Of a stretch of 64,000 nt of DNA, positions 558 through 52,410 are shown one piece after another (position 1 is the first letter of the stretch; every line of letters starts with the position of its first letter). A program made the translations under genes and the position numbers. Below the pieces are notes generated by a model, which searched no databases, had not been told where the DNA came from, and saw only the letters and a list, made by a program, of their open reading frames with translations. This stretch comes from a virus. Lineage: Duplodnaviria > Caudoviricetes. The stretch covers positions 32,001 through 96,000 of IMG/VR virus record IMGVR_UViG_3300017909_004140, one strand, 5' to 3'.

Positions 558-577
558 CTTATTCTCCGTCTGATAAG

Positions 578-611
578 TAAAAAATAGCTGGATGCTGTGT
601 CCAACTATTTT
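578..611 (-). terminator. Hairpin flanked by A/T runs in the pstS leader (terminator or 5' stabilising stem)
   Basis: AAAATAGCTGGA-tgctgtg-TCCAACTATTTT inverted repeat. Confidence 0.45.
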
Positions 612-619
612 ATATGTGT

Positions 620-653
620 ATTATACTACAAAAATGTTACAATTTTATTACAT
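620..653 (-). promoter_or_regulatory. Pho box plus -10 element upstream of pstS
   Basis: Minus strand ATGTAATAAAA-TTGTAACATTT-TTGTAGTATAAT. TGTAAT, TGTAAC and TGTAGT repeat at 11-bp spacing; the second half-site ends 10 nt before TATAAT (625-620). Confidence 0.75.
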
Positions 654-675
654 TTTATATTTAAGTGATTTGGTA

Positions 676-906
676 CTATAACCCTTTTCCACAGTGAGGA
701 CAGTTAGTTAGTTTTCCCATCTGTTTTTCCATTTTTCTCAATAGATCGCGCATTCTTTTAGCATCTTTTATTTCGCTTTTTATCCATTCTTTTCTTCTAT
801 CACTTTTAGCAAGCTTGAGTTCTTCTTTTAGTCTGTCTTTTTGTTTGCTTAGTTTTGTTTTAAACACTTCATAAAAAGCTGTATTCATTACTTCATGTTC
901 TGACAC
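676..906 (-). CDS. Hypothetical coiled-coil protein with C-terminal CPHC
   Basis: ORF track; GGAG SD upstream. Confidence 0.6.
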   Translation of the reverse strand: MSEHEVMNTAFYEVFKTKLSKQKDRLKEELKLAKSDRRKEWIKSEIKDAKRMRDLLRKMEKQMGKLTNCPHCGKGL

Positions 907-915
907 TGACGTCTC

Positions 916-1221
916 CTAGTGTATCGTTAAATCTTCTTCACTATAATAGGCATCTTGCACCATATTTCGTACTATACCTCCGTTTGCGTACACTAGTGTA
1001 AAGTTCTCTTTCAAAAACTCATTGTTTCTGTATAACTTTTCTAGTAAGACGCTTGACTCAAGAGCTTTTATTGTTTTGTTTAATATATCTTCATTTTGAG
1101 AAGCGCTTGGATAATGTTTTGTAACCACTTCTTTTAGATACATCTTTCTTTGTCTAGGAGGCAAAGAAATGATATAATCTAGAGCAGCTTCTGGTAATTC
1201 CCATAGTTTCATGATGCACAA
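916..1221 (-). CDS. Hypothetical protein
   Basis: ORF track; co-oriented with neighbours. Confidence 0.55.
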   Translation of the reverse strand: MCIMKLWELPEAALDYIISLPPRQRKMYLKEVVTKHYPSASQNEDILNKTIKALESSVLLEKLYRNNEFLKENFTLVYANGGIVRNMVQDAYYSEEDLTIH

Positions 1222-1250
1222 ATAGGCAGAGGGATTTCACCTCTGCCTTA
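1221..1250 (-). terminator. Intrinsic terminator after the D5-like gene
   Basis: AGGCAGAGG-gatttca-CCTCTGCCT perfect 9-bp stem. Confidence 0.7.
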
Positions 1251-1277
1251 TCAAGTTTAAATTAAACTACTAAGCAA

Positions 1278-1961
1278 TTAGCCTTCGTTTGCTTTAGGAG
1301 TATAGTCTGCGCAGGAAAGACCACGACGAGTAAGAACAGTCTTAACGCCACGCACAGTCTTGCCAAAGGCTTCTGCGATTTCTTCTACAGACTGGTCGAG
1401 CATATCCTCGATTCCGTCATACGGATCAGACTTAGAAGACTTCTTGTCACGCTGTTCAGCTTTAAGACCCATCGAGAGAAGCTTACCACGTACTGAGTTA
1501 ACAGGACGTCCAAGAGCTTCTGCAATCTCTTCAAGATACTTACCATCGTTGACAAGCGATTCGATTTCAGCTTCTTGCTCAGCACTGAAAGTCTTAGGAG
1601 TTACCTTCTTTTCAGCTGGCTTGATATGAGAAGTCATTTCAAGCGAGAGAGCTTTACCGTTGATTTGGCGAGCGGTGAACTTGCCATCAGCAAACACATC
1701 TGCAATTTCTTCAGCAGTGTGTGCGCCAGAGTTTTCTTCCAAAAATGCCGCAAGAGCATCAGTCTCGTCTGCAGAAAATACAGGAGCTGCGCCAGGCTTT
1801 TTAGGAACGTCAAAACCGAGTTTACGAAGTTTAGCAGTTACTGAACGACGTGGAAACTCGAACTCGCCGCAAAGTGTTTCGATGATGTCTTCTGTTACAC
1901 CAGAAGCACAGGCTGATTCCATACGCGAAACCATTTCATCAGTATATTCAAATTTACTCAT
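1278..1961 (-). CDS. T5 D5-like DNA-binding protein with tandem HTH-like repeats
   Basis: Repeated units RSVTAKLRKLG / RQINGKALSLEM / NSVRGKLLSMG / RGVKTVLTRRG; lies directly after the NAD ligase, as in T5-like phages. Confidence 0.7.
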   Translation of the reverse strand: MSKFEYTDEMVSRMESACASGVTEDIIETLCGEFEFPRRSVTAKLRKLGFDVPKKPGAAPVFSADETDALAAFLEENSGAHTAEEIADVFADGKFTARQINGKALSLEMTSHIKPAEKKVTPKTFSAEQEAEIESLVNDGKYLEEIAEALGRPVNSVRGKLLSMGLKAEQRDKKSSKSDPYDGIEDMLDQSVEEIAEAFGKTVRGVKTVLTRRGLSCADYTPKANEG

Positions 1962-36282: not shown

Positions 36283-36895
36283 TTTAGAAGACGGAAATGC
36301 ACAAGATCTCATTGCATACTGTGCTAGAGTATCAAACCCCTCTAACCAGATGAATAGTGAAACAAGTGCTAAACTGATTAAATACCTAATAAATAATCAG
36401 CACTGGTCTCCGCTAGAGATGGTAAATGTTTGTTTAGAGATTGAGACTACACGAGATATTGCGCATCAGATTGTACGCCATCGCTCATTTTCTTTTCAAG
36501 AGTTTTCTCAAAGGTACGCTGATCCAAAAGAGTTTGGTGATCAGTTTGTAAGACGAGAAGCACGACTTCAAGATAGAAAGAACCGACAAAACTCTATTGA
36601 AACTGATGATGAAGAGCTACAAAAACAGTGGTTGATTCAACAAGATCAGGTGATTTTAGCAGCAGACAAAGCTTATAACTGGGCTATTGAGAATGGAATT
36701 GCTAAAGAACAGGCTCGTGTAGTTCTTCCAGAAGGCCTTACTAAAACTCGTTTATATATGAATGGTACTATTAGAAGCTGGGTACACTATATTCAACTAC
36801 GCGGAGCAAATGGTACACAAAAAGAACATATGGATATCGCTCATGAGTGCGCCAAAGTCATAGCTAATGTTTTTCCAATGGCTGAGTATCTATAA
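36236..36895 (+). CDS. thyX: Flavin-dependent thymidylate synthase
   Basis: ARVS, HWSPLEM, RHRSFSFQEFSQRY, KEQARVVLP, TQKEH. Confidence 0.96.
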   Translation: MQVRLISYTQAAESSDLEDGNAQDLIAYCARVSNPSNQMNSETSAKLIKYLINNQHWSPLEMVNVCLEIETTRDIAHQIVRHRSFSFQEFSQRYADPKEFGDQFVRREARLQDRKNRQNSIETDDEELQKQWLIQQDQVILAADKAYNWAIENGIAKEQARVVLPEGLTKTRLYMNGTIRSWVHYIQLRGANGTQKEHMDIAHECAKVIANVFPMAEYL

Positions 36896-37534
36896 ACAAG
36901 AAAGGTCTCTCATCTCAAAGTGAAATGGAAATAGATAGCGTTTTACTTTTAAAACACTTTTATCTTCTTCTGTATAAGTAATCCCGTAGCATTTAGTTGC
37001 GGGATTTTCTATAGGTTCTTCAATTTCTGGAACCCAATCTCCCCAGTACGATTGTACGATAAAATCATGAGAGTTAAAAAAGTAAACATCTCTATAGTTC
37101 TTATCTAGTCCATGACTTCTTCCAATGCCAAACTGATTACCTATAGCTGATTTATAGGGAAGTTGAGGCAATTCATACTTATACATGTCTGCATCATAAG
37201 TTTTTAGCACTCTTTTTTTACTGCTTAGATAGTATTTTATTGCATAAAAGTCTAGTGAGTTAAAGTTCTCTACTTCAAACTCTTCTCTTAAATAGTGTGG
37301 ACATTTTTCATCAAAAACAACAACTATTGCGTCTTCTTCATAAGTAGTGTTATTTTTTGAGTGATAACTAATCATATCATAAGAAAAACATAAATCTTTA
37401 TTAACCTCTTCACTGAAGTAAGTAAATAGTTTATTTTTTAATTCTAACACATCAGAATCATTTGAATTACCTTTGTAAACATATTCTACAATATTATCAG
37501 AGTCATATTGAATTTCTACAAATTTATCAGTCAT
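36890..37534 (-). CDS. Hypothetical protein (last gene of the radical SAM operon)
   Basis: ORF track; overlaps the upstream gene. Confidence 0.6.
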   Translation of the reverse strand: MTDKFVEIQYDSDNIVEYVYKGNSNDSDVLELKNKLFTYFSEEVNKDLCFSYDMISYHSKNNTTYEEDAIVVVFDEKCPHYLREEFEVENFNSLDFYAIKYYLSSKKRVLKTYDADMYKYELPQLPYKSAIGNQFGIGRSHGLDKNYRDVYFFNSHDFIVQSYWGDWVPEIEEPIENPATKCYGITYTEEDKSVLKVKRYLFPFHFEMRDLSCL

Positions 37535-38210
37535 ATCCTTGTTCTACCTTTTCTTTTATAAACTTTGCTAGCCTGTTAATCCAGAAATAACGAGTCCAAT
37601 GAACTATTATGCTTACAGGATTTTTACCATTTAATACGGCTCCTCCTATGAGAAGTCTACAATAGTACCATCTTTTGTATTTTCGACCAAAACAGTGGTT
37701 CCAGTTTTCAGTTTCTTTTTCGATAACCTCTTTAGGTATCTCTTCTCCTGCTTTTGTAAAGTATAGCTTGTCTTCAATCTTAAACCAATTTTGGGTTTCA
37801 TCCATAGTTGGGTCGTCCATTACTTCGTGATAATCATTAAAAGGATCATATAAATTTATATTAGTTTGAGATTCTTGATAAAAAACTCTATACTGCGGTA
37901 ATTTTGCTTTGACTACTTGTTTAGCAAAAGCATCTCTCGATTTTTTAGACCCAAAACAAATAACAACAAAAGATTCTTCCATCCAATCATGCCCTTCGCA
38001 AGAAGAACAGGTTAAATATCCTTTTTTGTTAAGTATCTCCACTAGAGGCCAAATACCAGGATCTACTTGAGATTTAAACTCTTTCATGTATGGAGAGACA
38101 GATACGCCAACCCAATTATTACCTGTAACTGTGGCATTGACTCGTCCGTTATCGTGTAGCCAGTTTTTCTTTGTAAAATGCTCTTTTCTATAAAAATCTT
38201 TTTTATTCAT
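37527..38210 (-). CDS. Protein with TYW3/Taw3-like SSCxG motif
   Basis: VDPGIWPLVEILNKKGYLTCSSCEGH. Confidence 0.45.
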   Translation of the reverse strand: MNKKDFYRKEHFTKKNWLHDNGRVNATVTGNNWVGVSVSPYMKEFKSQVDPGIWPLVEILNKKGYLTCSSCEGHDWMEESFVVICFGSKKSRDAFAKQVVKAKLPQYRVFYQESQTNINLYDPFNDYHEVMDDPTMDETQNWFKIEDKLYFTKAGEEIPKEVIEKETENWNHCFGRKYKRWYYCRLLIGGAVLNGKNPVSIIVHWTRYFWINRLAKFIKEKVEQGYD

Positions 38211-38719
38211 CTAGGCGTAATTCCTGTAATACACAAGTTAAAAGTATCAGTTAGTAAAGGAGTTGTTCCATGTACCCACTCTTTATTTATCTGATCACAT
38301 ATGATTACTAGCCCTGTATAAGGAGTTATTTTTTTAATATTATTTTTTGTTCCGTATAAAAAGTCTCTACCTTTCATGTCTTTTTCAATATAGTAAATCA
38401 TAATTTGAACTAATCCACCAAAAGCATTGTCTGTGTGTAGGTCTACATACTCATTTTTATCTGTTTTATACGCTTCAAAAGTTTCTAATTTATCTAGAAG
38501 CTTTTGTAGATACAAATCTACTTTTGTATATAGTTGTTTGATGAAGAATTGATTAAGATAAGGAGGCATGCCTAGTGTAGACCAACTTACTTCTTTTCCT
38601 AGTTGCTTATCTTCATTTGGATAAAAAGTTAATGATTTTAGTTCTGTTTTTATATTTTTAGGTATTGTAATGCTATCAAAAGCAAAACCATTTTCTATAA
38701 CTTCTTTGTATGTAATCAT
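38207..38719 (-). CDS. 2OG-Fe(II) oxygenase
   Basis: LHTD...WVHGTTPL (HxD...H). Confidence 0.65.
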   Translation of the reverse strand: MITYKEVIENGFAFDSITIPKNIKTELKSLTFYPNEDKQLGKEVSWSTLGMPPYLNQFFIKQLYTKVDLYLQKLLDKLETFEAYKTDKNEYVDLHTDNAFGGLVQIMIYYIEKDMKGRDFLYGTKNNIKKITPYTGLVIICDQINKEWVHGTTPLLTDTFNLCITGITPR

Positions 38720-39372
38720 TTTACTAGTATAACTCCTACAAAGTTGTATGCTTTCCAGAATACTTCATACTTTTTAAAACCTATTTCTTCTATTTCTTGT
38801 AAGATATCTTCCCAAGATCTTATATTCATAGAGGCTCTTAACTCTTTTTCTTTGAGCATAATATCATCATATCTAAAGAATTTAGCTTTATAATCATAGT
38901 TTGCAAAAGTAAACACTTCTTGTAACATTGAGTCGCTAGAATACGTTTTTTCACAGAGTATTAAGGCTCCGTTAGGTATTAAAGAATCATATATATTTTT
39001 TAATACTGTTACTCTATCAGCAGTAGGTAAAAATTGAAGAGTAAACATAGAGACAGCCAAAGAAACATCAGTGCCAAACTCTAGCTTTCTCACATCTTCA
39101 ATTTTAAACTCTATATCATTATCTTCCCAGTGAGAACAAAAAGCTGTTTCATTATCTATTCCAATATATGAAACATTTTTAGCATGTGATGCTTTTTTTA
39201 TTTTTCTTAAATTTTTACCAGTAGAACATCCTAAGTCATACACTATAGTGTTATCTTGTATAAAAAAACCTGCAATAGTAGTTATCATAGTGCTTAGAGT
39301 TTTATATGAAATAATACTTTTTGATATATGATTATCAAACCCAAACGAGTGTTTTGCAAAGCTAAAACGCAT
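38716..39372 (-). CDS. CmoA-like class I SAM-dependent transferase
   Basis: FDNHISKSI, VYDLGCSTG, SMFTLQFL, L.PNGALILCEK. Confidence 0.8.
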   Translation of the reverse strand: MRFSFAKHSFGFDNHISKSIISYKTLSTMITTIAGFFIQDNTIVYDLGCSTGKNLRKIKKASHAKNVSYIGIDNETAFCSHWEDNDIEFKIEDVRKLEFGTDVSLAVSMFTLQFLPTADRVTVLKNIYDSLIPNGALILCEKTYSSDSMLQEVFTFANYDYKAKFFRYDDIMLKEKELRASMNIRSWEDILQEIEEIGFKKYEVFWKAYNFVGVILVK

Positions 39373-40276
39373 TTTTATACCTGCTTAGTAAATTTATGTA
39401 CCCATTACAGCTGTTTTTTAAGTCTTTTACAAAACGATAGTGTTCTGTTAGGCAGTGTCCTTTCCAAGAGCAATTTTGACAAACAGTAGAGAGAGACTTT
39501 TTTTCTTGCCACGCCCATTGTTCATATGTGTTGTAGTTAGTAAACTCTAAGAAATACTCTTTATCGTTTTTGTCAAAGTCTAGTACTGCATATTTACCAT
39601 TAGGAGTTATATAGATGTGATCATCTGAAAAAGCATTATACTCTTTTGTTAACGATCTTTTAATTCTTGCTTTATTTTCAAAATGAAATTTCTTCTTTAT
39701 TTTAGATTCCATCCATTTCACAACAAAGTTTTCAAAATCTCTATGACTTACTGCGTCTGCATTAGCTTGGTTTATACTATAGGGTTTTATTTCAACAGAC
39801 TTAACAGCTTTACACATATTTAATTTAGATATCATCATATCAACATCTAAATTTAGAACTCTTTTAGAAGCCAGAATTAGAACCGCTATAGGTTTAGAAC
39901 TCATTAACATATTATTAAAAACTATGTCTGATTTTTCTCTTGCTGAAAAATCATATGAGACGGAAAGAGTGACATCATCCTCGAAGAATCTGTCGTCAAG
40001 CATAGAAAAATTAGTATTAATATTGATGTAATCATGATAATGTTTGCGTATAACGGATTTAATTTCTTTGTAGTATTCTTTTTTAAGTGCGCCAATCTCT
40101 CCTCCGTATAAGTCTACGTGATCTATTTTTGGAATATTTGATAATAGTAGGTCTAGTTTTTCTGGGCTAATTCTTTTTTGATTTCCTAACTGTTCTGGAG
40201 TTAAATAACAAAAGTCACATCTGAAATTACAAAAATAACTAGGATTTATTGAGACTGAAAATATTTTATCCACCAT
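39362..40276 (-). CDS. Radical SAM enzyme with C-terminal Cys cluster
   Basis: CNFRCDFCY, YGGEI, CQNC...CLTEH...C. Confidence 0.9.
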   Translation of the reverse strand: MVDKIFSVSINPSYFCNFRCDFCYLTPEQLGNQKRISPEKLDLLLSNIPKIDHVDLYGGEIGALKKEYYKEIKSVIRKHYHDYININTNFSMLDDRFFEDDVTLSVSYDFSAREKSDIVFNNMLMSSKPIAVLILASKRVLNLDVDMMISKLNMCKAVKSVEIKPYSINQANADAVSHRDFENFVVKWMESKIKKKFHFENKARIKRSLTKEYNAFSDDHIYITPNGKYAVLDFDKNDKEYFLEFTNYNTYEQWAWQEKKSLSTVCQNCSWKGHCLTEHYRFVKDLKNSCNGYINLLSRYKNAF

Positions 40277-40671
40277 CTATACTCTTTTCCATTTATAGTT
40301 TCATAGTCTTTAGGCTCAAATCCAAATTTTTTTAATAATGTGTCTACTCTTTTATGACGACTTAATCCCCAAAGCGGGTTTCCGTTTTCTGGGGTTACAG
40401 CATAATTACCCAGTTTATATATTGCGTCAGTGCCTTGATATTTTTTATCTATTAAGATAGTTTCAAGATACTCTCCTCTATCAATAGAAACTACTGTATA
40501 GTATCCTATAGGTTTATTTTCTAGATAAAGTAGATGTGCTCTTTGTTTTTGTATTAACTCAATAAAATCATCTTTTTCATCACGTTCTTCTTTTGTCATG
40601 TTATAAGATAGAGCAATTAGTATTGGTAAATCATTGATGCTAGCTTTTTTAGTTTTGTATATCAAGAACAT
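40246..40671 (-). CDS. GNAT acetyltransferase
   Basis: KKASINDL, KPIGY, ILIDKKYQG, LLKKFGF. Confidence 0.7.
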   Translation of the reverse strand: MFLIYKTKKASINDLPILIALSYNMTKEERDEKDDFIELIQKQRAHLLYLENKPIGYYTVVSIDRGEYLETILIDKKYQGTDAIYKLGNYAVTPENGNPLWGLSRHKRVDTLLKKFGFEPKDYETINGKEYRWWIKYFQSQ

Positions 40672-41446
40672 CTCCTAATATTCTAATGTCTTGTTCGTGA
40701 TGCATATTGTGTTCTCTTTTTATCATTGGAGTAATTCTTGTATCCCAAGATATGCTTATTCTAGGCATTTTAGACTGGTTAGGCTCTACTTCGTGCCAAA
40801 CCCACGAGGGAAATAGAATGAATTTACCTATTTCAGGCTTTATGGTAATGTTAGTTGGATTAACTGATTTTGTAGGTTTATCAAAGGTATCGACATAATC
40901 ACCAAATAAACCAGAAAACTCTAAAGTACTATTATTCATCTGTCTACCGTATTCATTATATCTAGAAGTATGATTATGTCTAATAGCATCACTACTTGTT
41001 TCGTCACCTGCTTTAGTCAGCATCTCTAAATCTAAATATCCAAAATCCATCATATTAGAATTACCTTTTGGATCTACCATGAGTAGATGACTGTCATGGT
41101 CGTTTAACCAAATAGTCCCACTAATATGGTTATTAGGGTGGTTGTGAATTCCAACATTTTGACTTTGGGGAAGCACATGCGCCCAGGCATAAGACTTTAT
41201 ATCATATTGATCGGACTCAAATAAGTTATTTTTTATATACTCTTTTATTGCAGGTACTAAATTATCGTGGTAAAGTGTTTGTAGTAAAGGCTCATCTAAA
41301 CTAAACAAGTTAAATACCTCTGTCACTTCATCAGGATTGTGATATTTATTCAATATATAGTTGAATAAATTTTTAGCTAATTGTTTGTCTACTGTGCCTA
41401 AAAGTATAGGAGTTGGCCATAAGTGTCTATGTGTATACTGATTCAT
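40649..41446 (-). CDS. Putative 2OG-Fe(II) oxygenase (TIGR02466-like)
   Basis: LWPTPI, HNHPNNHISG, GKFILFPSWVWHEVEPN...RISISW. Confidence 0.8.
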   Translation of the reverse strand: MNQYTHRHLWPTPILLGTVDKQLAKNLFNYILNKYHNPDEVTEVFNLFSLDEPLLQTLYHDNLVPAIKEYIKNNLFESDQYDIKSYAWAHVLPQSQNVGIHNHPNNHISGTIWLNDHDSHLLMVDPKGNSNMMDFGYLDLEMLTKAGDETSSDAIRHNHTSRYNEYGRQMNNSTLEFSGLFGDYVDTFDKPTKSVNPTNITIKPEIGKFILFPSWVWHEVEPNQSKMPRISISWDTRITPMIKREHNMHHEQDIRILGDVLDIQN

Positions 41447-42500
41447 TTACATACTCCGTTGGTATTGCGTCTAGTTTACATATATCTATAATATCAGGTG
41501 CTAAAGATTTCATTTTTTTACAATGAATTTCTGTTAAATTTAGTCTTTTTAGATCACTGATAGTTTTTCTACATCCATTACATATTTTAAACATTGGACA
41601 GGTTAAGCATGATTGTTTTAACACCATTAAGTTAAAATCGTTTTGCAATGGGGTTTCTATTTCTTTTTGTGACATCTCTTTGTCAAAATCAATTTTATAC
41701 TCTTTATCATCTCCAAAAGCTCCACAAGAATAATAGTCTCCTCCAGGATTTAAGTTTCTAATACTTTCATCACAACGTCTATTTTGTGGGCAGGTAGTAT
41801 TCGAAGAAAATCTTTTCAATAGCTGAGTAGTATTATACTCCCACTCTGAAAGACCTAGTTTGTATATCTGTAAATATTTTTCATATATATCTGCTAGCAA
41901 ATATGTGTAGTTTTCTAGCCCCATTTTTATACCATTTAAGAATTTTATTTCAGGCCCGCTCGCTACAGCATAGTTTAACTTACAAACTACTCCCATTTTT
42001 TTAGCTAGTAGCACATTATCAATCGCTTTATCCTCGTTTTCTTTTGTAATTACGGATATGAAATCTGGACGGTAGCCTACTAATTCTTTCATTTTATTTG
42101 AAACATTCCAAAAATCTTCTTCACTAAACTCTGTGAAGTCCCCTTTTAAGCGTCCTCCTCCATATTGAAATGAGGTACATACTCCGACTCTAGGATGCTT
42201 AAATAGATTTAACCATTTGTTAGGATTTTTATAAAAAGGCCAAAGATTAGTAGTTAATGAAATAGTTGTTTCTAAAGCATGCTCCTCTAAATATTCAATT
42301 ATTTTCCAGTAGTAGTCAGGAGACATCATTAGAGGATCACCACCATTTACTATAATAGTGTTTGTATAAGGAAATCTTTTTAGAAACTGAAATATTTTAT
42401 CATGAGAGAGTTCTACTGTCTTGGAGTCTGCTATTTTTGTACTTGAGCAAAAAGTACATTTAAAGTTGCAGCGCTCTGTAGGTTTAATTATTAATTCCAT
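41427..42500 (-). CDS. Radical SAM/SPASM enzyme
   Basis: IKPTERCNFKCTFC, NGGDPL, SPASM C...C...GDYYSC...CLTCPMFKICNGC. Confidence 0.93.
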   Translation of the reverse strand: MELIIKPTERCNFKCTFCSSTKIADSKTVELSHDKIFQFLKRFPYTNTIIVNGGDPLMMSPDYYWKIIEYLEEHALETTISLTTNLWPFYKNPNKWLNLFKHPRVGVCTSFQYGGGRLKGDFTEFSEEDFWNVSNKMKELVGYRPDFISVITKENEDKAIDNVLLAKKMGVVCKLNYAVASGPEIKFLNGIKMGLENYTYLLADIYEKYLQIYKLGLSEWEYNTTQLLKRFSSNTTCPQNRRCDESIRNLNPGGDYYSCGAFGDDKEYKIDFDKEMSQKEIETPLQNDFNLMVLKQSCLTCPMFKICNGCRKTISDLKRLNLTEIHCKKMKSLAPDIIDICKLDAIPTEYVNESVYT

Positions 42501-43473
42501 CTAAAAACCCCCAATAGTCTTTCAACCAGCAATGCTCCATAGTAGCTTTTTCTGGTAGTATGTGATTTTCTTGGAAACAACCTAAGCCACACTTACTAAA
42601 ATAATCACACATTAAACAATTGAATCCTTCTATCCATTTTGCTTCCATTTTTTCTCTACTATCGTGGGTCATAGCTCTATAGTTACCTCCTACTAGTAGA
42701 TTACAATGACCTATTTCTCCATCAGCAGCTATTACACTTGTTCTCTGACAGGTTAAATTTTTTCTAGTATCTCCTAATAAATACTTATCTATAGGACTGA
42801 CTTTAGGATAATTGATACTTAAAAATTTAAACATATCTAGCAGTTCTGTATCACTAGGGCAGTTTATACTAGCATTTTTTTCAGGAGTGTAGTAGTCAAA
42901 ATATATATTAAAATTCTCATATAGATAGTCAAATCCAGTAACTTCTTTGTTTAAAAACTTATAAATATTGGGAGCTGTTAATATGATGTTTACTGTTTGA
43001 ATATACTCTTTAAAATATCTCACATTATCCATAAAAACATCTAACTGGTTAGTATTAAAGCGCCCAGCTGGATCATAACTAACAGCAAGATTTATATTAA
43101 GCCTATCTAATAAATTTTTTACTCTGACTCTATCATTCCATATCATATTAGAAGTAATAAGAAATTCACTATTTTCAAACGATTTTTGGCACCTAAGAAT
43201 TAAAGACTCAATTTTACTTAAAATTTGATTTGAAATTTCATCACTCAGAATCTCTCCTCCCATAAAATGAAAGGAAAATTGTTCTTTATTTTGTGCGCGT
43301 AAGTTTTCGTAGACGCTTTTTATCGCAAAGTATTTTTCTGGGATGGAGTTCACACCCTCAAATGAATTATGATTTTGAGAACAAAAACTACACGCAAGAT
43401 TACAGTGTTCGAATAGGGTAACAATAACCTCTCCTAGATTAGACGATTTTTTATCTATTACACTACTGTACAT
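42484..43473 (-). CDS. Radical SAM/SPASM enzyme
   Basis: CNLACSFC, MGGEI, C...DGEIGHC...CLMCDYFSKCGLGC...C. Confidence 0.92.
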   Translation of the reverse strand: MYSSVIDKKSSNLGEVIVTLFEHCNLACSFCSQNHNSFEGVNSIPEKYFAIKSVYENLRAQNKEQFSFHFMGGEILSDEISNQILSKIESLILRCQKSFENSEFLITSNMIWNDRVRVKNLLDRLNINLAVSYDPAGRFNTNQLDVFMDNVRYFKEYIQTVNIILTAPNIYKFLNKEVTGFDYLYENFNIYFDYYTPEKNASINCPSDTELLDMFKFLSINYPKVSPIDKYLLGDTRKNLTCQRTSVIAADGEIGHCNLLVGGNYRAMTHDSREKMEAKWIEGFNCLMCDYFSKCGLGCFQENHILPEKATMEHCWLKDYWGFLDGINN

Positions 43474-44602
43474 AACCTTCTCTGAAACTATGGTGATCTG
43501 TTAGTTGCCAACTTCTTACTTTTTTAGTATTTCTTTCTTTATTATTTACAAAAGGTTTAAACTTATCTCTTTTTTCTTCTAGTGAGTATTCTAACAACTT
43601 ATCATATCTTTTTTCTTTACAAAGTAGGTAAAAATATCTTAGCAAATAGTGGGTTGTTTTGTCTTGGTGTTGATACTCTCCTATGTTACCTCCTGCATAT
43701 ATGGTATTGATATCTATATCAATAATTTTTCTTAAGCCAATCTCTCCCGTAATGAATAGTTCCATTAACTGCTCGCTGTCAAAAAACCCATTATGTCCAT
43801 ACTTCATCACTGATTTACGATATAACTTAAAAATAGTTTTCATATCGTAGTTGTTTTTAACATATTCTAAACTAGGATAAGCTTTTATATTCTCATCCAT
43901 TAGCCAACTATATTCATCAGGTAGTTTTAAATCTGCATACTCTGCGGTTTCATATAAGTGAGATCCATAATCAACATTTTCTAATAAGTCTCCTAGTTCG
44001 AACAGCTGACACATTACATTCATTTTCCAGTAGGTAAGTTCGTTCAGCACTGTATCTGCAACTATACCATATAGTTTTTTATACAAAATATCTTTATGTG
44101 CATATTTTGTGTTAGATAAATAACTAGCTAAGTGTAGCTCTGTGCAAGCTCCTTTTATATAACTACTATTTAACTCATGTTTATTACACTGTTCATATAC
44201 TTTATTGAACTCCTCAAAAGATAATAGTTTTAAAGAATCCCAAGGAGACCGTAAATTTATAGAACCATCGTCGTGTGATAAGCATGATTTTCCATGAAGA
44301 TATATATGCTTTTGTAATACTAGCTTATAAAAGTGATAAATAGATAAGGGAGAGTGGTTAGGCAGGATAGATTTTAGATATGTAGTAAGTATTTTTACAT
44401 AAGTTTCTTCTTCTGCTAAAACTATAAGTTCAGTATCTTTTTTGATGTTTTTGAAAGCATCGTTACCAAACAAGTCATCAGCATCTTTAAAATAATTCCA
44501 AGTGCTAGGAATAGGTGCTTCATACCCAACTAAGAATTTAGGAGTGTCCGGAGGGTAACAAAAGCTAAAATCTAGATAAACATTATTTATTAGGTTGAAC
44601 AC
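43463..44602 (-). CDS. Hypothetical protein in the radical SAM operon
   Basis: Long ORF overlapping both neighbours. Confidence 0.6.
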   Translation of the reverse strand: MFNLINNVYLDFSFCYPPDTPKFLVGYEAPIPSTWNYFKDADDLFGNDAFKNIKKDTELIVLAEEETYVKILTTYLKSILPNHSPLSIYHFYKLVLQKHIYLHGKSCLSHDDGSINLRSPWDSLKLLSFEEFNKVYEQCNKHELNSSYIKGACTELHLASYLSNTKYAHKDILYKKLYGIVADTVLNELTYWKMNVMCQLFELGDLLENVDYGSHLYETAEYADLKLPDEYSWLMDENIKAYPSLEYVKNNYDMKTIFKLYRKSVMKYGHNGFFDSEQLMELFITGEIGLRKIIDIDINTIYAGGNIGEYQHQDKTTHYLLRYFYLLCKEKRYDKLLEYSLEEKRDKFKPFVNNKERNTKKVRSWQLTDHHSFREGYVQ

Positions 44603-45281
44603 CGGCTGCTATCCCTGATACAAATACTAAAAGTGGCACATTATGTTCAAGCATCCAGCCGTATAAATTTTGTTCGTCATAGATATATTCTTCAGAATAG
44701 TGTTTAAAATACCTTTTTCTAGAACCAGAGGTTTCGTATATTTCAAATATAAAAGGGTTATTAATTAGGTTAATAACATTTTTACCTAATATTTCTGGGT
44801 CATCTACTACTTCATAATTTTTTAACTCTTCGTTTACAAAATCACTCAGAGAAGATACAAAAGAAAGAGTTGTAATAGGAAGTGACTCTAAGAAATCTGT
44901 AGTGTTTAACAGTTCATTATAAAATTCGTCAATAAACTTATCTGTCCATTCCTCAGTTAAAAGACTCATAGAGTATAAATCATCAACATCTATATTATTA
45001 TATTTAAGTACAATGTAGGTTAGCCCTAGCTCAAGCTCTTTACAGGTGATTAAATTGTTAGATGTAAAGTATAGCCTTAATAGTTCATACTTTTCTTCTT
45101 GTGTAGTGTTGTATAGATTAAGTTTAAAATCAATATCTAGATTAGATACATAATTAAAAAACGTTCTACCACTGATATCACTATCATAATACATTATTTC
45201 AAACTGTATTTTTTCTTCTTCCATAAAATATTGTTGTAAAAGCTCTACGTCAATAGGTGCTTTTGTTTTTATAACTCTCAT
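44583..45281 (-). CDS. Hypothetical protein in the radical SAM operon
   Basis: ATGA-coupled to the CHxx-repeat gene. Confidence 0.6.
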   Translation of the reverse strand: MRVIKTKAPIDVELLQQYFMEEEKIQFEIMYYDSDISGRTFFNYVSNLDIDFKLNLYNTTQEEKYELLRLYFTSNNLITCKELELGLTYIVLKYNNIDVDDLYSMSLLTEEWTDKFIDEFYNELLNTTDFLESLPITTLSFVSSLSDFVNEELKNYEVVDDPEILGKNVINLINNPFIFEIYETSGSRKRYFKHYSEEYIYDEQNLYGWMLEHNVPLLVFVSGIAAGVQPNK

Positions 45282-45877
45282 CTTCTTCCTCTTGAACTAT
45301 GACAGTTACTATGACAGCTTGCGTGGCAAGTATCTACAAATATAGTAACTTGATTTTCTTTTAAAGTATTCCACTGACTATATAGATTAGCTATATAATC
45401 TTCAAAATTAGAGGCGTCTATAACATCTCCTTCTTGAATATCATATGTAGCGCTATTATCTGTAACAGTTTGTTTATACGCAGAACCATCTAAGTGAATA
45501 AAATCAGTAGTGGTTCTTTGTTGTACATTATTTCCATTACCGCTAGGATATCCCGTTCTGTTAAAACGCAGTCTCCAGTTTAGTTTTCTAACTCCTGTAT
45601 AGTCTCTCGTTAGGTTACGTAAATAAGTTGCTAACTGTGCCGCATCTACTACTGCGTCTAGTCCCCCGCTAACTGCGGGGGCTACAGTGGGAGTTCCTAC
45701 TACTGAAAAAGGCACTCCTCCTTTAGGCGCGTTAGTTAGATTTGAATATGTTCCTGAAGAGAAAGGTGTTCCTGTTCCTACATCAATAACGGGGTTTATA
45801 GCATCTCTCATTACTTCGTTAAATCGGTTAACAACTAGTGCTTTGCTTACTTCATCTCCTGCATTAATAGTCGGCAT
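45278..45877 (-). CDS. Virion-like protein with C-terminal (CHxx)3-RGRR tail; candidate modification substrate
   Basis: Ends DTCHASCHSNCHSSRGRR; internal repeats INAGDEVSKA / IQEGDVIDAS; Gly/Thr/Val-rich composition. Confidence 0.65.
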   Translation of the reverse strand: MPTINAGDEVSKALVVNRFNEVMRDAINPVIDVGTGTPFSSGTYSNLTNAPKGGVPFSVVGTPTVAPAVSGGLDAVVDAAQLATYLRNLTRDYTGVRKLNWRLRFNRTGYPSGNGNNVQQRTTTDFIHLDGSAYKQTVTDNSATYDIQEGDVIDASNFEDYIANLYSQWNTLKENQVTIFVDTCHASCHSNCHSSRGRR

Positions 45878-46901
45878 AATATTCTCCTTGCTTTAATACC
45901 TGTATGGGGGTATTTTTTATTAGTTTAAATAGTTCTTTTGGCGAAGGACAGTGTGATTCATCCCACTCTAATTGATGACATCCGCTACCACACAAATCAA
46001 ATACTTCGCATTTATAACATCTTTCGTCTCTAGCTGCTTCACAAGCTATTAGTTCCATTCTTTTAGGTTTGAAAATTAATTCCCAAATCTCTTCATTTAT
46101 ATTACCATAAACTTCTTCAGGAGCAGCATTAGGACATCCGCTTATACTACCATCTGCATTTATAGTAAATAATTTTTGTTCACAGTCTCTACAAAAAGTA
46201 GCCGCTTGAGTTCCATTTGTTCTTGTTTTGACCATAGAGTTTATAAATGAATCAGTCCAGTTTTTAGGAGTGGTGTCTTTGTAAATTTCTAAAAACCAAT
46301 CAGCCTGTTCTTTATTACTGGGAAATATCTCAGGATGTTTTTTAGCATTTCCATGATCTGTAAGTCTTTCAAAATCTACTACATCTACGTTCAATGAGTT
46401 AAAATACTCTATAATTTCTTTAGGTTTAGTATTACAAAGTTCCTTGGTAACACTCACAAACATCGTTATAAAACAATCTAGCTCTTTTAATCTTTTTACA
46501 TTTTTCTCCCAAAGAGTTTTTTGTTTTTCATTAGAAAACCGTATACTTTTATCCCAAGAAGTTCCAATAACTCCTTTTAAGTCTTCAGTAATAAATTTAA
46601 TTTTTTCTTCACTTAAATTAAAAGTTAAGTTACTAGTAATACCAAATGAGACGTTATCATCATACTTCATACTATCAACTACATATTTCATATCTTTAAC
46701 AGGAGCAAGAAAAGGCTCTCCTCCGTGAAACTCAAAATGAATATGATTCGTTTTATAGTGCTTTCTTAATTTTTTTATCCAATCTACTGTTCTTTTAGGA
46801 TTAAAGTATATTTTTCTACCGTTTATTCCGTTTGTAAAACAGTGTTTACAATTGAGCTGACAAGTTTCCGTGGTTTTCAGATAAACTGTTATAGGATGCA
46901 T
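45864..46901 (-). CDS. Radical SAM/SPASM enzyme
   Basis: LKTTETCQLNCKHC, FHGGEPFL, CRDC...TINADGSISGCPN...CYKCEVFDLCGSGC...CP. Confidence 0.94.
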   Translation of the reverse strand: MHPITVYLKTTETCQLNCKHCFTNGINGRKIYFNPKRTVDWIKKLRKHYKTNHIHFEFHGGEPFLAPVKDMKYVVDSMKYDDNVSFGITSNLTFNLSEEKIKFITEDLKGVIGTSWDKSIRFSNEKQKTLWEKNVKRLKELDCFITMFVSVTKELCNTKPKEIIEYFNSLNVDVVDFERLTDHGNAKKHPEIFPSNKEQADWFLEIYKDTTPKNWTDSFINSMVKTRTNGTQAATFCRDCEQKLFTINADGSISGCPNAAPEEVYGNINEEIWELIFKPKRMELIACEAARDERCYKCEVFDLCGSGCHQLEWDESHCPSPKELFKLIKNTPIQVLKQGEYYADY

Positions 46902-47460
46902 CGTTTTCCATCTGTAGTGTCTGTAATTTTAAATCAATATACTTGTAGTATTTTCTTATACCAAAACTTAATGAAACATTTTCTGTAAGATTGTCTGCAT
47001 AATGAGCTTTTTCTCCTGGTATAAACACAGACTCGCCTGCTTTAAGAACAACTTCTTCCTTATGGTCTGGAAATACCATCTTTTTAGTTCCAGAAAGAAG
47101 TAGTATTACTACATCATAAGGATCTACGTGAGCAATAAAACTCGACTTTCCTTCTTTTCCCCAGTATAAGTGACAATCTATATATTCTTCTTCAGTTTTG
47201 AAGTTACATATCGTTGAAATGAACTCATCGTATTTTTCAAACCCTTCTACTTTAAATGTGTTCTTGCTCTTTGCTTTTATTTTTGTTAAAGTATTTTTAT
47301 AAGAGTTCGGAAATACCATATTTTCTTCAGCATTTTCAATGTAGAATACTTTTCCATCTCTTATGAAATGATAATTAGTTATCAATTCTATAGGTTTTAT
47401 ATTATGATATTTTTCGTACAATTCATGCGAAAAAGTTTTTATATGGTTAGATAAATTCAT
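46846..47460 (-). CDS. JmjC/cupin (YcfD/RoxA-like) oxygenase
   Basis: SFIAHVDPYDVVILLLSGTKK...LKAGESVFIPGEKAHYA. Confidence 0.8.
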   Translation of the reverse strand: MNLSNHIKTFSHELYEKYHNIKPIELITNYHFIRDGKVFYIENAEENMVFPNSYKNTLTKIKAKSKNTFKVEGFEKYDEFISTICNFKTEEEYIDCHLYWGKEGKSSFIAHVDPYDVVILLLSGTKKMVFPDHKEEVVLKAGESVFIPGEKAHYADNLTENVSLSFGIRKYYKYIDLKLQTLQMENDASYNSLSENHGNLSAQL

Positions 47461-48739: not shown

Positions 48740-48816
48740 GGTTGCGTAGCTCAACAGGATAGAGCAACGGCCTTCTAAGCCGTAGGTTGAGGGTTCGAGT
48801 CCTTCCGCAATCGCCA
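48740..48816 (+). tRNA. tRNA-Arg(TCT)
   Basis: GGTTGCG/CGCAATC acceptor, anticodon arm ACGGC-CT-TCT-AA-GCCGT, GGTTCGAGTCC T arm, encoded CCA. Confidence 0.96.
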
Positions 48817-48818
48817 AT

Positions 48819-48893
48819 GCGGGTATAGTATAACGGCTATTACTACAGCCTTCCAAGCTGAAGATCGGAGTTCGATTCTCCGTACCCGCTCCA
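48819..48893 (+). tRNA. tRNA-Gly(TCC)
   Basis: GCGGGTA/TACCCGC acceptor, CAGC-CT-TCC-AA-GCTG, GTTCGATT T loop, encoded CCA. Confidence 0.95.
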
Positions 48894-48908: not shown

Positions 48909-49715
48909 ATGACAAAAAAATATATTGCAGTAAGTGGTGGATTTGATCCAGTACATAAAGGTCATTTAGAGATGATTGAAGAAGCAGCAGAGCATGGTGA
49001 TGTTGTTGTGCTTCTTAATTCTGATAAATGGCTAGCTAGTAAAAAAGGCAAAGCTTTTATGGACGAAGAGCAACGCTCTTATATTATGTCGTCTATTAAA
49101 GGAGTCGTTAATGTTATTATTGGGGATGACTCTGATGGAACTGTTTTAGACGCACTAAAACAGTTTAAAGAACAATATTCTGATGAAGAGGTAGAACTTT
49201 GCTTTGCTAATGGCGGAGATAGAAAAAATGATAATGTTCCTGAGGTTGAGTACTGCTTAGTAAATGACATTCAATTACTTTGGAATATTGGGGGAGAAAA
49301 AACACAATCTTCTTCTCATTTATTATCTAATTGGGCAGGGGAGCACTGTGTTAGAGATTGGGGGACTTGGACAGTTCTAAAAGATTATGGATCAGTAAAA
49401 GTAAAAGAGCTACATGTGCTACCAGATAAAGAATTATCTTTTCAAAAACATGAACATCGTTCTGAACATTGGTATGTTGTAAAAGGCACAGCGTATATTT
49501 ATAATGGTAAAGTTATTCCAGGGGAGGTTGTAAAACAACATAATACAGTAGACATTCCTCAAGGGGCTTGGCACCAGTTGTGTAACTATTCAACTACTGA
49601 ACCTCTTTTTATTTTAGAGGTACAACAAGGAGAAAAGTGTATTGAAGAAGATATTGAGCGTATTGATGCTCCTCGCCACGATTGGAGAGGCAAACGCGAC
49701 GGAAAATCTATCTAA
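48909..49715 (+). CDS. HIGH-family nucleotidyltransferase fused to a mannose-6-phosphate-isomerase-type cupin
   Basis: SGGFDPVHKGH, LNSD, FANGGDR; then WG.W...LSFQKHEHRSEHWYVV...EEDIER. Confidence 0.85.
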   Translation: MTKKYIAVSGGFDPVHKGHLEMIEEAAEHGDVVVLLNSDKWLASKKGKAFMDEEQRSYIMSSIKGVVNVIIGDDSDGTVLDALKQFKEQYSDEEVELCFANGGDRKNDNVPEVEYCLVNDIQLLWNIGGEKTQSSSHLLSNWAGEHCVRDWGTWTVLKDYGSVKVKELHVLPDKELSFQKHEHRSEHWYVVKGTAYIYNGKVIPGEVVKQHNTVDIPQGAWHQLCNYSTTEPLFILEVQQGEKCIEEDIERIDAPRHDWRGKRDGKSI

Positions 49716-50247: not shown

Positions 50248-52410
50248 ATGGCAACGATAGTTCCCGTCTCTCTCGGTGGTACTGGATCGAATAATATTTC
50301 TGGTGCTATTGAGAATCTTGGCTTTAGTGCCGCAAATACAGAAACCACCCTAAGTAACGTAACAGCTACGACCGTAACCATTCAAGGATTGACTTTGAAT
50401 GAGTCTACTGGTGTGCCTTCTTTTATCAATTCTAACTTACATATGGGAGCAGGTACCAGAATAAATGGTACTCCCGTACTTGATAGTGCTGTTATAAATA
50501 ATGCTACTATTTCAGCAGGCGGATTAACTTTTATTACTGAAAATGGTAATGCGCTTGTTACTACTGCGAGAGTTATTCACAAAGCAGCTTTTGATAGTAA
50601 TACCTCTTTTCCTGATCCTGTTACATTTAACGGCTATTTTGCTGTGGACCATGCATATAGTAAGGCATACTATAGTGATGGTTATAAACATAATGAACTC
50701 TTAACTAACAATACCTCTCTTACCCCAGATAAAAATTTTGGTACTTACGAACAAGATTTTGATATTGCTGGAGGCGCTACTGTACTTAGATCATTTCTTG
50801 ATATAGGCACAATCACTAATCAAATTAGAAATGTTAATATGCACGGAGCTATCAGAGGAGCTAACACTCTTTCTGTATATGAGTCTGTAAACTTCGGAGA
50901 CAACGGCTTTAGATATGTAGCTAATGATTCTTTAGGAGACCAGATTATCATCGGCCCTGGAGGAGCAGTTCCCGATACTCAGATGCAGATTAACGGTAAT
51001 TTACGTATCAACGGTAATTTGGTTATTATTGGTGCCACTCTTAACCAAGATACAGCAGCTGGAACAGTGCAAACAAACTTACATCATTTTGCCTCTACTA
51101 CAAATACAACTACTAACTCACTAATCTATGGTGTAGATTCCGCAAATACAAATATTGACACAGTTCAAGGTAATTTACACTCTTTTGGAACTCATGCAAA
51201 CTCTAGAATAAATATTGTACAGAGCAATGTTCATTCTATGGGAGCTAGAACTAATGCGAATATAAATGTTCTTCAAGGAAATATGGATCATCTCGGTACT
51301 AGTGTTAATAACTCTATTACTGCAATTCATTCTGGTAGTCAAGACTTTACTGTTAATAAAACATTCCAAGCTAATGTTACTATTCAAGGAAATCTAGTAG
51401 TCCAAGGAGACACTATTTCTGCAGACGTTACAAACATGACCGTCGAAGACCCTCTAATTGTATTAGCTAATAATAATCCAGGCACCTCTCTTGATGCGGG
51501 CTTATTAGTTCAAAGGTTAAATCCTGCCGATAATCAAGCTTGGATATGGGACGAAGCAAATGATGGTTGGGCAGCCTTAAGAACTTCAGAAGATGGTAGT
51601 ACAGCTGGTTCTATCTCTGCTTTGGGTTATATGGATGTTTATGCGAGAGATGTTAGACCTCAGAGAGATTTAAGGTCACCTAATGTTTTTGTAACAGATT
51701 TATCAGCAGATAGAATAGTTCACACTACTACTTCTGGAGAGCTTACTGCAACTTCTAGTCTTACTTTTGATGGTACTACTTTTGGAGTTAACAAAATATC
51801 CTCTGTTGCTAGTGGTGATGATCTTGTATTTGACACAAATGGTACAGGTAATGTTGTAGTAACACAAGGTACTCAGATTGAACTAGCGTCTGCTAATGTT
51901 GCTGATCTAACCTCTGGTAGAGTAGTTTATGCAGGCTCTAATGGTGAGCTTCAAGACGATGGAGATTTTACGTTTGATGGTACTACCGTTACAGCTAGTT
52001 CTTTATCAGTAAGTGGTTCTACTGCTTCTACTAGTAAAGATACAGGCGCATTAATCGTTACAAACGGAGGATTAGGAGTTGAGGGAGCTATTCATGCAGG
52101 GGGTGATGTTTCCGCTTTTAATACTTCAGACTATCGTTTAAAGAATAATGTAAAAAATATTAACTCTGCACTAGACAAACTAGATAATATATCAGGCGTT
52201 GAGTTTGATTGGAGCGCTTCTGAGGCTGGTCTTAATTATGGTCATCTACACGGCCATGACGTTGGTGTTATCGCTCAAGATTTACAACAAATATTACCAG
52301 AAGCAGTTAAGACTAGAGATGATGGTTACTTAGCCGTAGACTATAGCAGAGTTGTTCCTCTCCTCATTCAAGCCATTAAAGAGTTAAAAGCACAAATTGA
52401 GGACAAATAA
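50248..52410 (+). CDS. Tail fibre with C-terminal peptidase S74 intramolecular chaperone
   Basis: beta-rich repeats, VEDPLIVL, GALIVTNGGLGV, SDYRLKNNV...GVIAQDLQ...VDYSRVVPLLIQAIKEL. Confidence 0.9.
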   Translation: MATIVPVSLGGTGSNNISGAIENLGFSAANTETTLSNVTATTVTIQGLTLNESTGVPSFINSNLHMGAGTRINGTPVLDSAVINNATISAGGLTFITENGNALVTTARVIHKAAFDSNTSFPDPVTFNGYFAVDHAYSKAYYSDGYKHNELLTNNTSLTPDKNFGTYEQDFDIAGGATVLRSFLDIGTITNQIRNVNMHGAIRGANTLSVYESVNFGDNGFRYVANDSLGDQIIIGPGGAVPDTQMQINGNLRINGNLVIIGATLNQDTAAGTVQTNLHHFASTTNTTTNSLIYGVDSANTNIDTVQGNLHSFGTHANSRINIVQSNVHSMGARTNANINVLQGNMDHLGTSVNNSITAIHSGSQDFTVNKTFQANVTIQGNLVVQGDTISADVTNMTVEDPLIVLANNNPGTSLDAGLLVQRLNPADNQAWIWDEANDGWAALRTSEDGSTAGSISALGYMDVYARDVRPQRDLRSPNVFVTDLSADRIVHTTTSGELTATSSLTFDGTTFGVNKISSVASGDDLVFDTNGTGNVVVTQGTQIELASANVADLTSGRVVYAGSNGELQDDGDFTFDGTTVTASSLSVSGSTASTSKDTGALIVTNGGLGVEGAIHAGGDVSAFNTSDYRLKNNVKNINSALDKLDNISGVEFDWSASEAGLNYGHLHGHDVGVIAQDLQQILPEAVKTRDDGYLAVDYSRVVPLLIQAIKELKAQIEDK

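Follow-up and report, generated by a model that had tools for sequence, protein, structure and literature searches.

The DNA analysed in this study (the window) is a whole stretch of 64,000 nucleotides, positions 32,001 to 96,000 of the IMG/VR record IMGVR_UViG_3300017909_004140, from a virus of the Caudoviricetes. Our subject is a gene on its minus strand, at 45278..45877, whose product of 199 amino acids, hereafter the target, consists of a variable alpha/beta body and an invariant C-terminal tail. The codons of the 16-residue tail, CHAS-CHSN-CHSS-RGRR, occupy 45281..45328 (minus) and run into the stop codon at 45278-45280. The protein thus ends in ...VDT-CHAS-CHSN-CHSS-RGRR, and the cysteines at 16, 12 and 8 residues from the end are the only three in the open reading frame (ORF), as a preliminary description of this DNA had stated when it placed all of them in the last 16 residues at a spacing of four. 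A Shine-Dalgarno sequence (AAGGAGA, 45883..45889, minus), located 5 nt before the target ATG, is the strongest among the 14 overlapping genes of the operon to which the target belongs. Two CHxx units in register correspond to a DNA word that the window contains twice, both times in the target, against an expected 0.07; none of 100 shuffles contained two occurrences, and the word is absent elsewhere in the 107,337-bp phage genome. The scan for promoters and terminators was uninformative, and promoter-like sites were fewer than in the shuffles.

The composition of the target (GC content 38.5%; Gly, Thr, Val, Ala, Ser and Asn together 52%; Lys 2.5%) is close to that of the fibre genes at 50248 and 52410, for which the corresponding values are 38-44%, 56-59% and less than 2%. 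The enzymes flanking the target have a GC content of 28-33%, 26-34% of these small residues and 5-11% Lys. These figures agree with the earlier claim of a virion-like composition unlike that of the Lys/Ile-rich enzyme neighbours. The region of the fibre genes, 50248-55271 (+), encodes a fibre of 720 aa that ends in a Peptidase_S74 chaperone, along with a Gly/Thr-rich protein of 953 aa, and both genes are located within 3-10 kb of the operon.

The fibre-like body that the same description had proposed was not borne out. AlphaFold2, supplied with the family alignment, predicts a compact domain (predicted local distance difference test, pLDDT, 83.6; predicted template modelling score, pTM, 0.81) with three long helices on a three-stranded sheet; the tail is modelled with low confidence and is presumably flexible. 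As modelled, the body is not fibre-like: it is a compact alpha/beta domain with no elongated beta-rich or coiled part, and no tail-fibre profile matches it. The repeated I-x-x-G-D-x-I/V-x-A units ascribed to the body are weak, being limited to two loose copies at residues 4 and 147, the first of which fits incompletely, and BLASTP detects no internal duplication. A Foldseek search of the PDB with the target model gave no match below E 0.5, and a wide VIA-align search found no solved look-alike (best Z 4.0). The matches in BFVD are uncharacterised family members alone, including the protein of Agrobacterium phage Atu_ph07. Scans of Pfam and of NCBIfam (E <= 0.01) assigned the target to no family, and its sole PHROG match is the unannotated phrog_35144, which covers the C-terminal 74 residues. 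In addition, tblastn of the target against cultured phages returned no match, as BLAST masks the tail.

Conservation of the tail

Nine close homologues with 44-86% identity to the target all carry the tail unchanged. An exhaustive phmmer search collected 202 cluster representatives (50% clustering, E <= 0.001), and nearly all alignments reach the last residue of the query. Tail motifs were counted in the 158 readable sequences among these representatives. The strict form, (CHxx)3-R-x-RR at the exact C-terminus, is present in 131 of the 158, and a further 22 come near to it, differing by an additional residue, by having 4-6 repeats or by an end of the RGHR type. Two natural variants (P0055 and P0120) have no tail Cys yet retain three H-x-S/N units. 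In an alignment of 88 sequences, the mean column identity is 21%, and the invariant or near-invariant columns all lie in the tail, with the exception of Met1 and Arg97; the entropy per column is 0.63 bits in the tail vs 2.4-3.0 bits in each segment of the body. Within each repeat the third position is variable, and the fourth is Ser or Asn in about 90-98% of the sequences. Positions left free by the DNA pattern with which we collected related loci are still conserved, namely the fourth position of the repeats (Ser/Asn) and the R-G-RR position, which is Gly in 217 of 256 sequences. At the sequence level, conservation in this large family is confined to the tail. The preliminary description had named a tail that is variable or missing in homologues as the observation that would speak against it; the opposite was found, since the tail is near-invariant while the body drifts.

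Some members of the family are longer. P0069 (453 aa) and P0028, P0046 and P0131 (396-428 aa) have N-terminal extensions, which in P0069 include a Pfam Gly_rich_2 domain ahead of the tail-bearing module, and several of these long members end in RGHR or RRHR, not RGRR. An expanded relative with 15 Cys and two CHxS blocks before ARGRR is encoded beside radical S-adenosylmethionine (SAM) enzyme genes on a contig of the Firmicutes species Dysosmobacter segnis (L151:3907-4266, minus).

The radical SAM cassette

The operon comprises 14 minus-strand genes, from 47460 to 36890, with successive overlaps of 4-56 nt. It begins with a JmjC/cupin Fe(II)/2-oxoglutarate (2OG)-type oxygenase of the conserved core (46846..47460), followed by rSAM1 (45864..46901), a radical SAM/SPASM enzyme. 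Downstream of the target are a core protein of 232 aa and unknown fold (phrog_20767, 44583..45281), the start of which overlaps the target stop by 4 nt, a lineage-specific unknown protein of 379 aa (phrog_36207, 43463..44602), the core member rSAM2, which has a CX2CX5CX3C motif (42484..43473), and the SPASM-like rSAM3, a frequent accessory (41427..42500). The remaining genes encode an accessory 2OG-Fe(II) oxygenase (PF13759, TIGR02466-like, 40649..41446), a small acetyltransferase-like protein identified by a weak PHROG match only (40246..40671), the accessory rSAM4, with a reduced C-terminal Cys motif (39362..40276), and, in four last overlapping genes (36890..39372), a SAM methyltransferase (38716-39372) and three unknowns. 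Among the 14 genes there is neither a peptidase nor an exporter.

The CxxxCxxC motif begins at residues 11-24 in all four radical SAM enzymes, and therefore none of them, rSAM1 included, has an N-terminal recognition element (RRE) of the kind that guides the enzymes of peptides that are made on the ribosome and modified after translation (RiPPs). Against the SPASM model TIGR04085 (cut-off 27 bits), rSAM1 scores 35.7 bits and contains the CX2CX5CX3C motif; rSAM3 scores 26.3 bits, just below the cut-off, and rSAM2 scores 17.6 bits though the motif is present. The nearest solved structure to rSAM1 is the anaerobic sulfatase-maturating enzyme (anSME, 4K36-4K39), with an end-to-end alignment at E 2e-7, and rSAM1 is 41-46% identical to its counterparts in cultured jumbo phages that also have the tail gene. 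A recent origin of these enzymes from one another was considered and rejected: rSAM1 and rSAM3 are barely alignable (BLASTP E 0.87). Therefore, the enzymes appear to be old, distinct lineages, which fits distinct chemical steps. The AlphaFold2 model of the 232-aa core protein is confident (pLDDT 92), and its best structural match (Z 5.3) extends over the first 58 residues only. Searches of solved structures with rSAM2 and the JmjC protein gave no match, and neither the 232-aa nor the 379-aa unknown has an NCBIfam match.

On the upstream side of the operon, the start codon of JmjC on the minus strand directly abuts the first base of a Cys-rich plus-strand ORF of 72 aa (47460/47461). There is no intergenic space here, and each of the two divergent promoters must therefore lie within the coding sequence of the other unit. 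Two adjacent tRNA genes, tRNA-Arg(TCT) and tRNA-Gly(TCC), are located at 48740-48893 (+), between the divergent neighbours of the operon and a nucleotidyltransferase gene. A cytidylyltransferase fused to a mannose-6-phosphate-isomerase-type cupin follows at 48909-49715 (+), within the 3-10 kb range of the operon.

Related loci were collected with a DNA pattern for the tail plus the stop codon, and their enzymes were located by phmmer with the operon proteins of the window. The pattern matches at least 120 IMG/VR contigs. Among the matches listed, which are often truncated loci, rSAM1 was found in 89, the 232-aa protein in 84, rSAM2 in 69, JmjC in 62, rSAM3 in 48 and rSAM4 in 34. All 18 of the listed loci that are well flanked (at least 4.5 kb on each side) hold 2-4 ORFs with CxxxCxxC within 4.5 kb, and their commonest gene order is JmjC, rSAM1, target, 232-aa protein, rSAM2 and rSAM3. 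By comparison of these sequences, a core order of JmjC, rSAM1, target, 232-aa protein and rSAM2 is shown, and the target gene always lies among 2-5 radical SAM genes. A second architecture (L001, L026, L077, L088 and about 20 other IMG/VR loci) begins with one or more collagen-like tail-fibre genes, followed by two tandem tail proteins of about 127 aa, three unknowns (about 420, 367 and 278 aa) and then 3-4 radical SAM genes.

Among cultured phages, five groups have the cassette: Ralstonia RSF1/RSL2 and relatives; Burkholderia FLC6, FLC8 and SURPRISE13; Agrobacterium Atu_ph07; Sinorhizobium Phosso; and Pseudomonas phage pPa_SNUABM_DT01. The last of these provided a test of prediction, which was passed: located via rSAM1 alone, it has, directly after that enzyme gene, a 178-aa gene ending CHTSCHTSCHSARGRR. 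In species-representative cellular genomes, the pattern matches 47 stretches, of which about 38 are true family members with radical SAM neighbours, and about 27 of these 38 belong to the Bdellovibrionota (loci within L127-L168, e.g., L145, L143 and L166), in which the JmjC gene is rare.

The virus particle and the fibre-like partner

The homologue of the target in phage Atu_ph07 has been detected in virions. The published virion proteome (Table S5, PMC6102473) lists gp170, of 31.89 kDa, with eight unique peptides and 35% coverage. The computed mass of the homologue, AUZ94952, is equal at 31.89 kDa, and the gene product numbering is fixed by the neighbours AUZ94958 and AUZ94959, which match gp176 and gp177. 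The flanking enzymes (gp168, 169, 171 and 172) are not on the virion list (PMC6102473). In the gel, gp170 is spread over fragments 1-9, with its maximum in fragment 1 (PMC6102473), which is the gel top, where proteins of 127-139 kDa peak; proteins of approximately 30 kDa usually peak in fragments 7-8. It is the only small protein on this list with more than two peptides that peaks at the gel top. This position suggests an SDS-stable (sodium dodecyl sulfate) or covalent species of high mass. The Sinorhizobium phage paper re-cites the Atu_ph07 data and supplies no second virion proteome. We consider that the target is probably a virion protein.

In most viral loci, the gene directly upstream of the cassette encodes a fibre-like protein of highly variable length (about 190-2800 aa). 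Its N-terminal parts match collagen or tail-fibre profiles. At the C-terminus it has a strongly conserved domain, some 150 aa long, that resembles the terminal parts of phrog_22593 and phrog_19602 ('tail fiber protein') in profile matches. A hidden Markov model (HMM) built from the C-terminal ends of twelve such fibre-like proteins identifies exactly one ORF in each of 64 viral loci, with E from 1e-41 to 1e-61. Loci were regarded as informative if the partner was found or if at least 3.5 kb of upstream sequence was present (n=80), and by this measure a same-strand partner lies upstream in 64 of 80 viral loci (80%), among the matches listed. The distance from its end to the target is 0-13 bp in some loci and about 1.5 kb, taken up by JmjC and rSAM1, in the others. 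The source phage has a single copy at genome positions 19-1326 (+) (G000:C1, locus L172), outside the window, with a weak match to the Peptidase_G2 intramolecular chaperone and an open frame that touches the start of the linear record. The copy in Atu_ph07 is gp176, likewise a virion protein. The partner HMM finds no such gene in the Bdellovibrionota loci.

Two phages have the partner domain apart from the cassette. In Campylobacter phage CP220 (NC_027997.1, locus L174), the domain occurs in gp036, after a gp25-like baseplate wedge gene, and the (CHxx)3 tail motif is nowhere in the genome, though radical SAM genes are present. In Pseudomonas phage PA5oct, the domain is part of a proteomically confirmed virion protein encoded beside baseplate genes, with no radical SAM genes next to it. 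We read the cassette as an optional addition to this baseplate-fibre module, with the fibre or its immediate vicinity as the probable site of action of the tail protein. Of the fibre role that the preliminary description had assigned to the target, the fibre-like body finds no support, but the target may still act at or on a fibre because the family is genetically tied to the upstream fibre-like gene in 80% of informative loci.

Proposed maturation of the tail and alternative explanations

The reading that we favour, with a probability of roughly 0.68, is that the target is an accessory virion protein of the fibre/baseplate module and that its C-terminal tail is the substrate of the co-encoded enzymes. 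The earlier designation of the target as the putative substrate is very probably correct: the tail is invariant, the gene is always found among radical SAM genes, and a homologue is present in virions.

The following course of maturation can be proposed. The compact, fast-evolving alpha/beta domain would present the last 16 residues, (Cys-His-x-Ser/Asn)x3-Arg-Gly-Arg-Arg-COOH, as a flexible substrate tail. The RRE-less, anSME-like SPASM enzymes would act on the free tail of this folded protein and not on a leader-guided peptide, and they would probably recognise the terminal R-x-R-R carboxylate end. In thioether-forming SPASM enzymes, a substrate Cys ligates the auxiliary iron-sulfur (Fe-S) cluster, and each Cys of the tail may likewise ligate an auxiliary Fe-S cluster of its enzyme. 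Hydrogen abstraction at the beta-carbon of Ser or Asn may then lead to a covalent link with the neighbouring His, in a chemistry of the triceptide or HXS type, possibly with Cys thioethers in addition. The conservation pattern leans mildly toward such His-x-Ser/Asn chemistry because x varies, the fourth position is Ser or Asn, His is as conserved as Cys, and the two Cys-less variants keep H-x-S/N. Relatives of JmjC proteins are protein hydroxylases that act on Arg or His. The JmjC and 2OG oxygenases of the operon may do the same, and plausible sites would accordingly be the R-G-R-R end or the His residues. Such reactions would leave a rigid knot, resistant to proteases and possibly able to bind metal, and this could fix the protein in an SDS-stable assembly on the baseplate fibre or close to it.

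Among known systems, the nearest in kind is HXS, and yet every feature of membership that we tested fails. In this antiphage system, HxsA is matured by the radical SAM enzymes HxsB and HxsC with HxsD, and a modification of +8 Da maps to an S-H-R-S-S unit in which His and Ser are both essential (Li et al., Nat Commun 2026, PMC13128918). Both systems combine a folded protein that bears tandem His-x-Ser units beside basic residues with at least two co-encoded radical SAM enzymes. However, the HXS effector serves bacterial defence, has a peptidoglycan-binding domain and undergoes N-terminal processing and export, whereas the target is phage-encoded and probably part of the virion. In the target repeat, every His is preceded by an invariant Cys, the period is four, the position is the exact C-terminus and the end is R-G-R-R. 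Counterparts of HxsA and HxsD were not recognised, as neither the target nor the 232- and 379-aa unknowns match any NCBIfam model at the threshold given above; with HxsA itself, the target has only the H-x-S/N motif in common. Moreover, rSAM1 scores 37.9 bits against HxsB (TIGR03978, cut-off 370) and rSAM3 scores 35 bits against HxsC (TIGR03977, cut-off 267.9), and both scores are weaker than those of the same enzymes to other families.

The triceptide enzymes, which are radical SAM/SPASM enzymes that form three-residue cyclophanes by a C-C bond from an aromatic ring to the beta-carbon of the third residue (X3), include XyeB, GrrM, FxsB and YhhB and the His-type HaaB and HtkB (PMC11499958). 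The target tail fits their aromatic-x-X3 motif, with a variable middle and a conserved third Ser/Asn (H-A-S, H-S-N, H-S-S), and the enzymes are of the SPASM type in both cases. However, triceptide precursors are short leader-core peptides recognised with the guidance of an RRE, whereas the target is a folded protein of 199 aa beside RRE-less enzymes, and its invariant Cys is foreign to triceptide motifs. The best scores to the maturase models XyeB, GrrM, FxsB, YhhB and AmcB are 21-49 bits vs cut-offs of 310-450. The CXXX-repeat systems (TIGR04115, PF27846) also have a Cys at every fourth residue and a gene beside a radical SAM maturase, but the target has only three repeats, an obligatory His in each and a fixed basic end. 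The nearest named cluster of the target in the ESM Atlas carries the PF27846 family (feature score 0.80), which we take as a lead only; Pfam at E <= 10 gave no match for the target or its longer-repeat relatives, although the PF27846 model may be missing from the Pfam set scanned. The score against the CXXX-repeat maturase TIGR04115 is 31.5 bits vs a cut-off of 350. In the case of QhpD and QhpC, a SPASM enzyme likewise puts several Cys cross-links into a protein kept in a larger assembly. However, QhpC is an enzyme subunit (of quinohemoprotein amine dehydrogenase) with Cys-to-Asp/Glu thioether links and a different motif, and the QhpD model is matched with 33 bits vs a cut-off of 453.

The likeness to anSME raises the possibility that enzymes of this type turn the tail Cys into formylglycine, the aldehydes of which then link covalently to other virion proteins. 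An anSME is a radical SAM/SPASM enzyme without an RRE, and its substrate is a full-length protein, in which it modifies a Cys within a short motif. Of the solved structures, anSME is closest to rSAM1 over the full length; it is also the second-best NCBIfam match of both rSAM1 and rSAM3, and the peak of gp170 in the top gel fragment would agree with such links. The sulfatase signature is C-x-P-S-R, and the third repeat, C-H-x-S-R, has its Cys, Ser and Arg positions in common with it. Nevertheless, we regard this outcome as unlikely. The scores against the anSME equivalog TIGR03942 (59.5 bits for rSAM1 and 57.7 bits for rSAM3, cut-off 349) are no better than those against DarE, CbpB and PapB; the target has no sulfatase domain; and of its three repeats with invariant His, only the third fits C/S-x-P/A-x-R in part, with mostly Gly or Ser where Pro or Ala is expected, while repeats 1 and 2 have Cys, not Arg, at +4. 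The invariant His and the Cys-less variants that retain H-x-S/N would also be left unexplained. Somewhat less likely again is that the tail stays unmodified and forms a Cys3-His3 metal site (Zn, Cu or Fe) on a protein associated with a fibre, the radical SAM enzymes having a different substrate, for instance the fibre protein or some small molecule. With a period of four, Cys and His at i and i+1 would fall along a single helix face, phage fibres commonly contain metal sites, and the fibre partner gene is adjacent in most loci. However, a metal site does not require the conserved Ser/Asn or the terminal R-G-R-R, the tail is the only element present with radical SAM genes in every cassette, including those of the Bdellovibrionota that lack the partner fibre, and the partner domain of PA5oct occurs without adjacent radical SAM genes.

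Two further explanations appear very improbable, and to the same degree. If the target were a classical RiPP precursor, its body of 183 residues would serve as a long leader, from which the modified tail is cleaved for release as a small bioactive peptide. The gene adjoins several SPASM maturase-like enzymes whose best family matches are RiPP maturases, and long leaders have precedent in some RiPP classes, but the operon offers neither a peptidase nor an exporter, the radical SAM enzymes have no RRE, the conservation is reversed, with an invariant 'core' and a variable 'leader', and the homologue was recovered from virions as a protein with 35% coverage. Alternatively, the target might supply the radical SAM enzymes with Fe-S clusters, as a carrier, or with electrons, as a donor, without being their substrate. 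A Cys/His-rich tail amid Fe-S enzymes would suit this function, and marine phages rich in radical SAM genes also have Fe-S assembly genes (PMC5332604); however, the composition is structural-like, the homologue is in virions from which the enzymes are absent, there is no similarity to ferredoxin, flavodoxin or scaffold families, and the spacing is unlike that of known cluster-binding motifs.

Several observations weigh against our preferred reading of the target as a virion protein with an enzymatically modified tail. All of the tail chemistry is inferred and unproven, and no radical SAM enzyme of the operon reaches any characterised maturase family in NCBIfam (best about 60 bits vs cut-offs of 340-650). 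The virion data for Atu_ph07 come from a single preparation purified with polyethylene glycol (PEG), in which some obvious non-structural proteins are also listed, and the high-mass gp170 could consist of disulfide-linked oligomers because the loading buffer is described without a reducing agent. The partner gene is not adjacent to the target in the source phage, RSF1 or DT01, and its exclusive association with the cassette is rejected by CP220 and PA5oct, which have the domain without the tail gene. Some Bdellovibrionota copies reside on contigs of 1.3-2.8 Mb, adjoining housekeeping genes such as signal peptidase II (lspA) and LolA. Therefore, the module is not strictly viral, and the family is not strictly a virion component.

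The cassette is widespread: it is present on at least 120 viral contigs, in cultured phages of five groups and in about 38 cellular genomes, and its sole invariant feature is the 16-residue tail. Our literature searches, which covered radical SAM/SPASM maturation in phage virions as well as CXXX-repeat systems, found no description of the tail family or of the maturation of a virion protein by radical SAM enzymes. To our knowledge, the substrates known to be matured by such enzymes are peptides (RiPPs), a few enzymes (sulfatases, QhpC) and, as of 2026, the HXS defence effector; virion proteins are not among them. The maturation of a protein motif by radical SAM enzymes is thus known, and what would be new is the biological setting, a virion protein. 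We tentatively propose, at somewhat less than even odds, that phage radical SAM enzymes cross-link the Cys-His-x-Ser tail of a small protein mounted on the baseplate fibre, in which case a virus particle would for the first time be found to depend on radical SAM enzymes for its maturation, and a new Cys/His-derived, possibly metal-binding motif would serve virion stability or host recognition, with the same module in the chromosomes of predatory Bdellovibrionota. Some marine T4-like phage genomes are known to hold many radical SAM genes and Fe-S assembly genes as well (PMC5332604). If the proposal is true, it would add a new enzyme chemistry on the Cys-His-x-Ser unit and a new layer of phage particle assembly, and it might explain the multiple radical SAM and Fe-S supply genes in many marine and jumbo phages.

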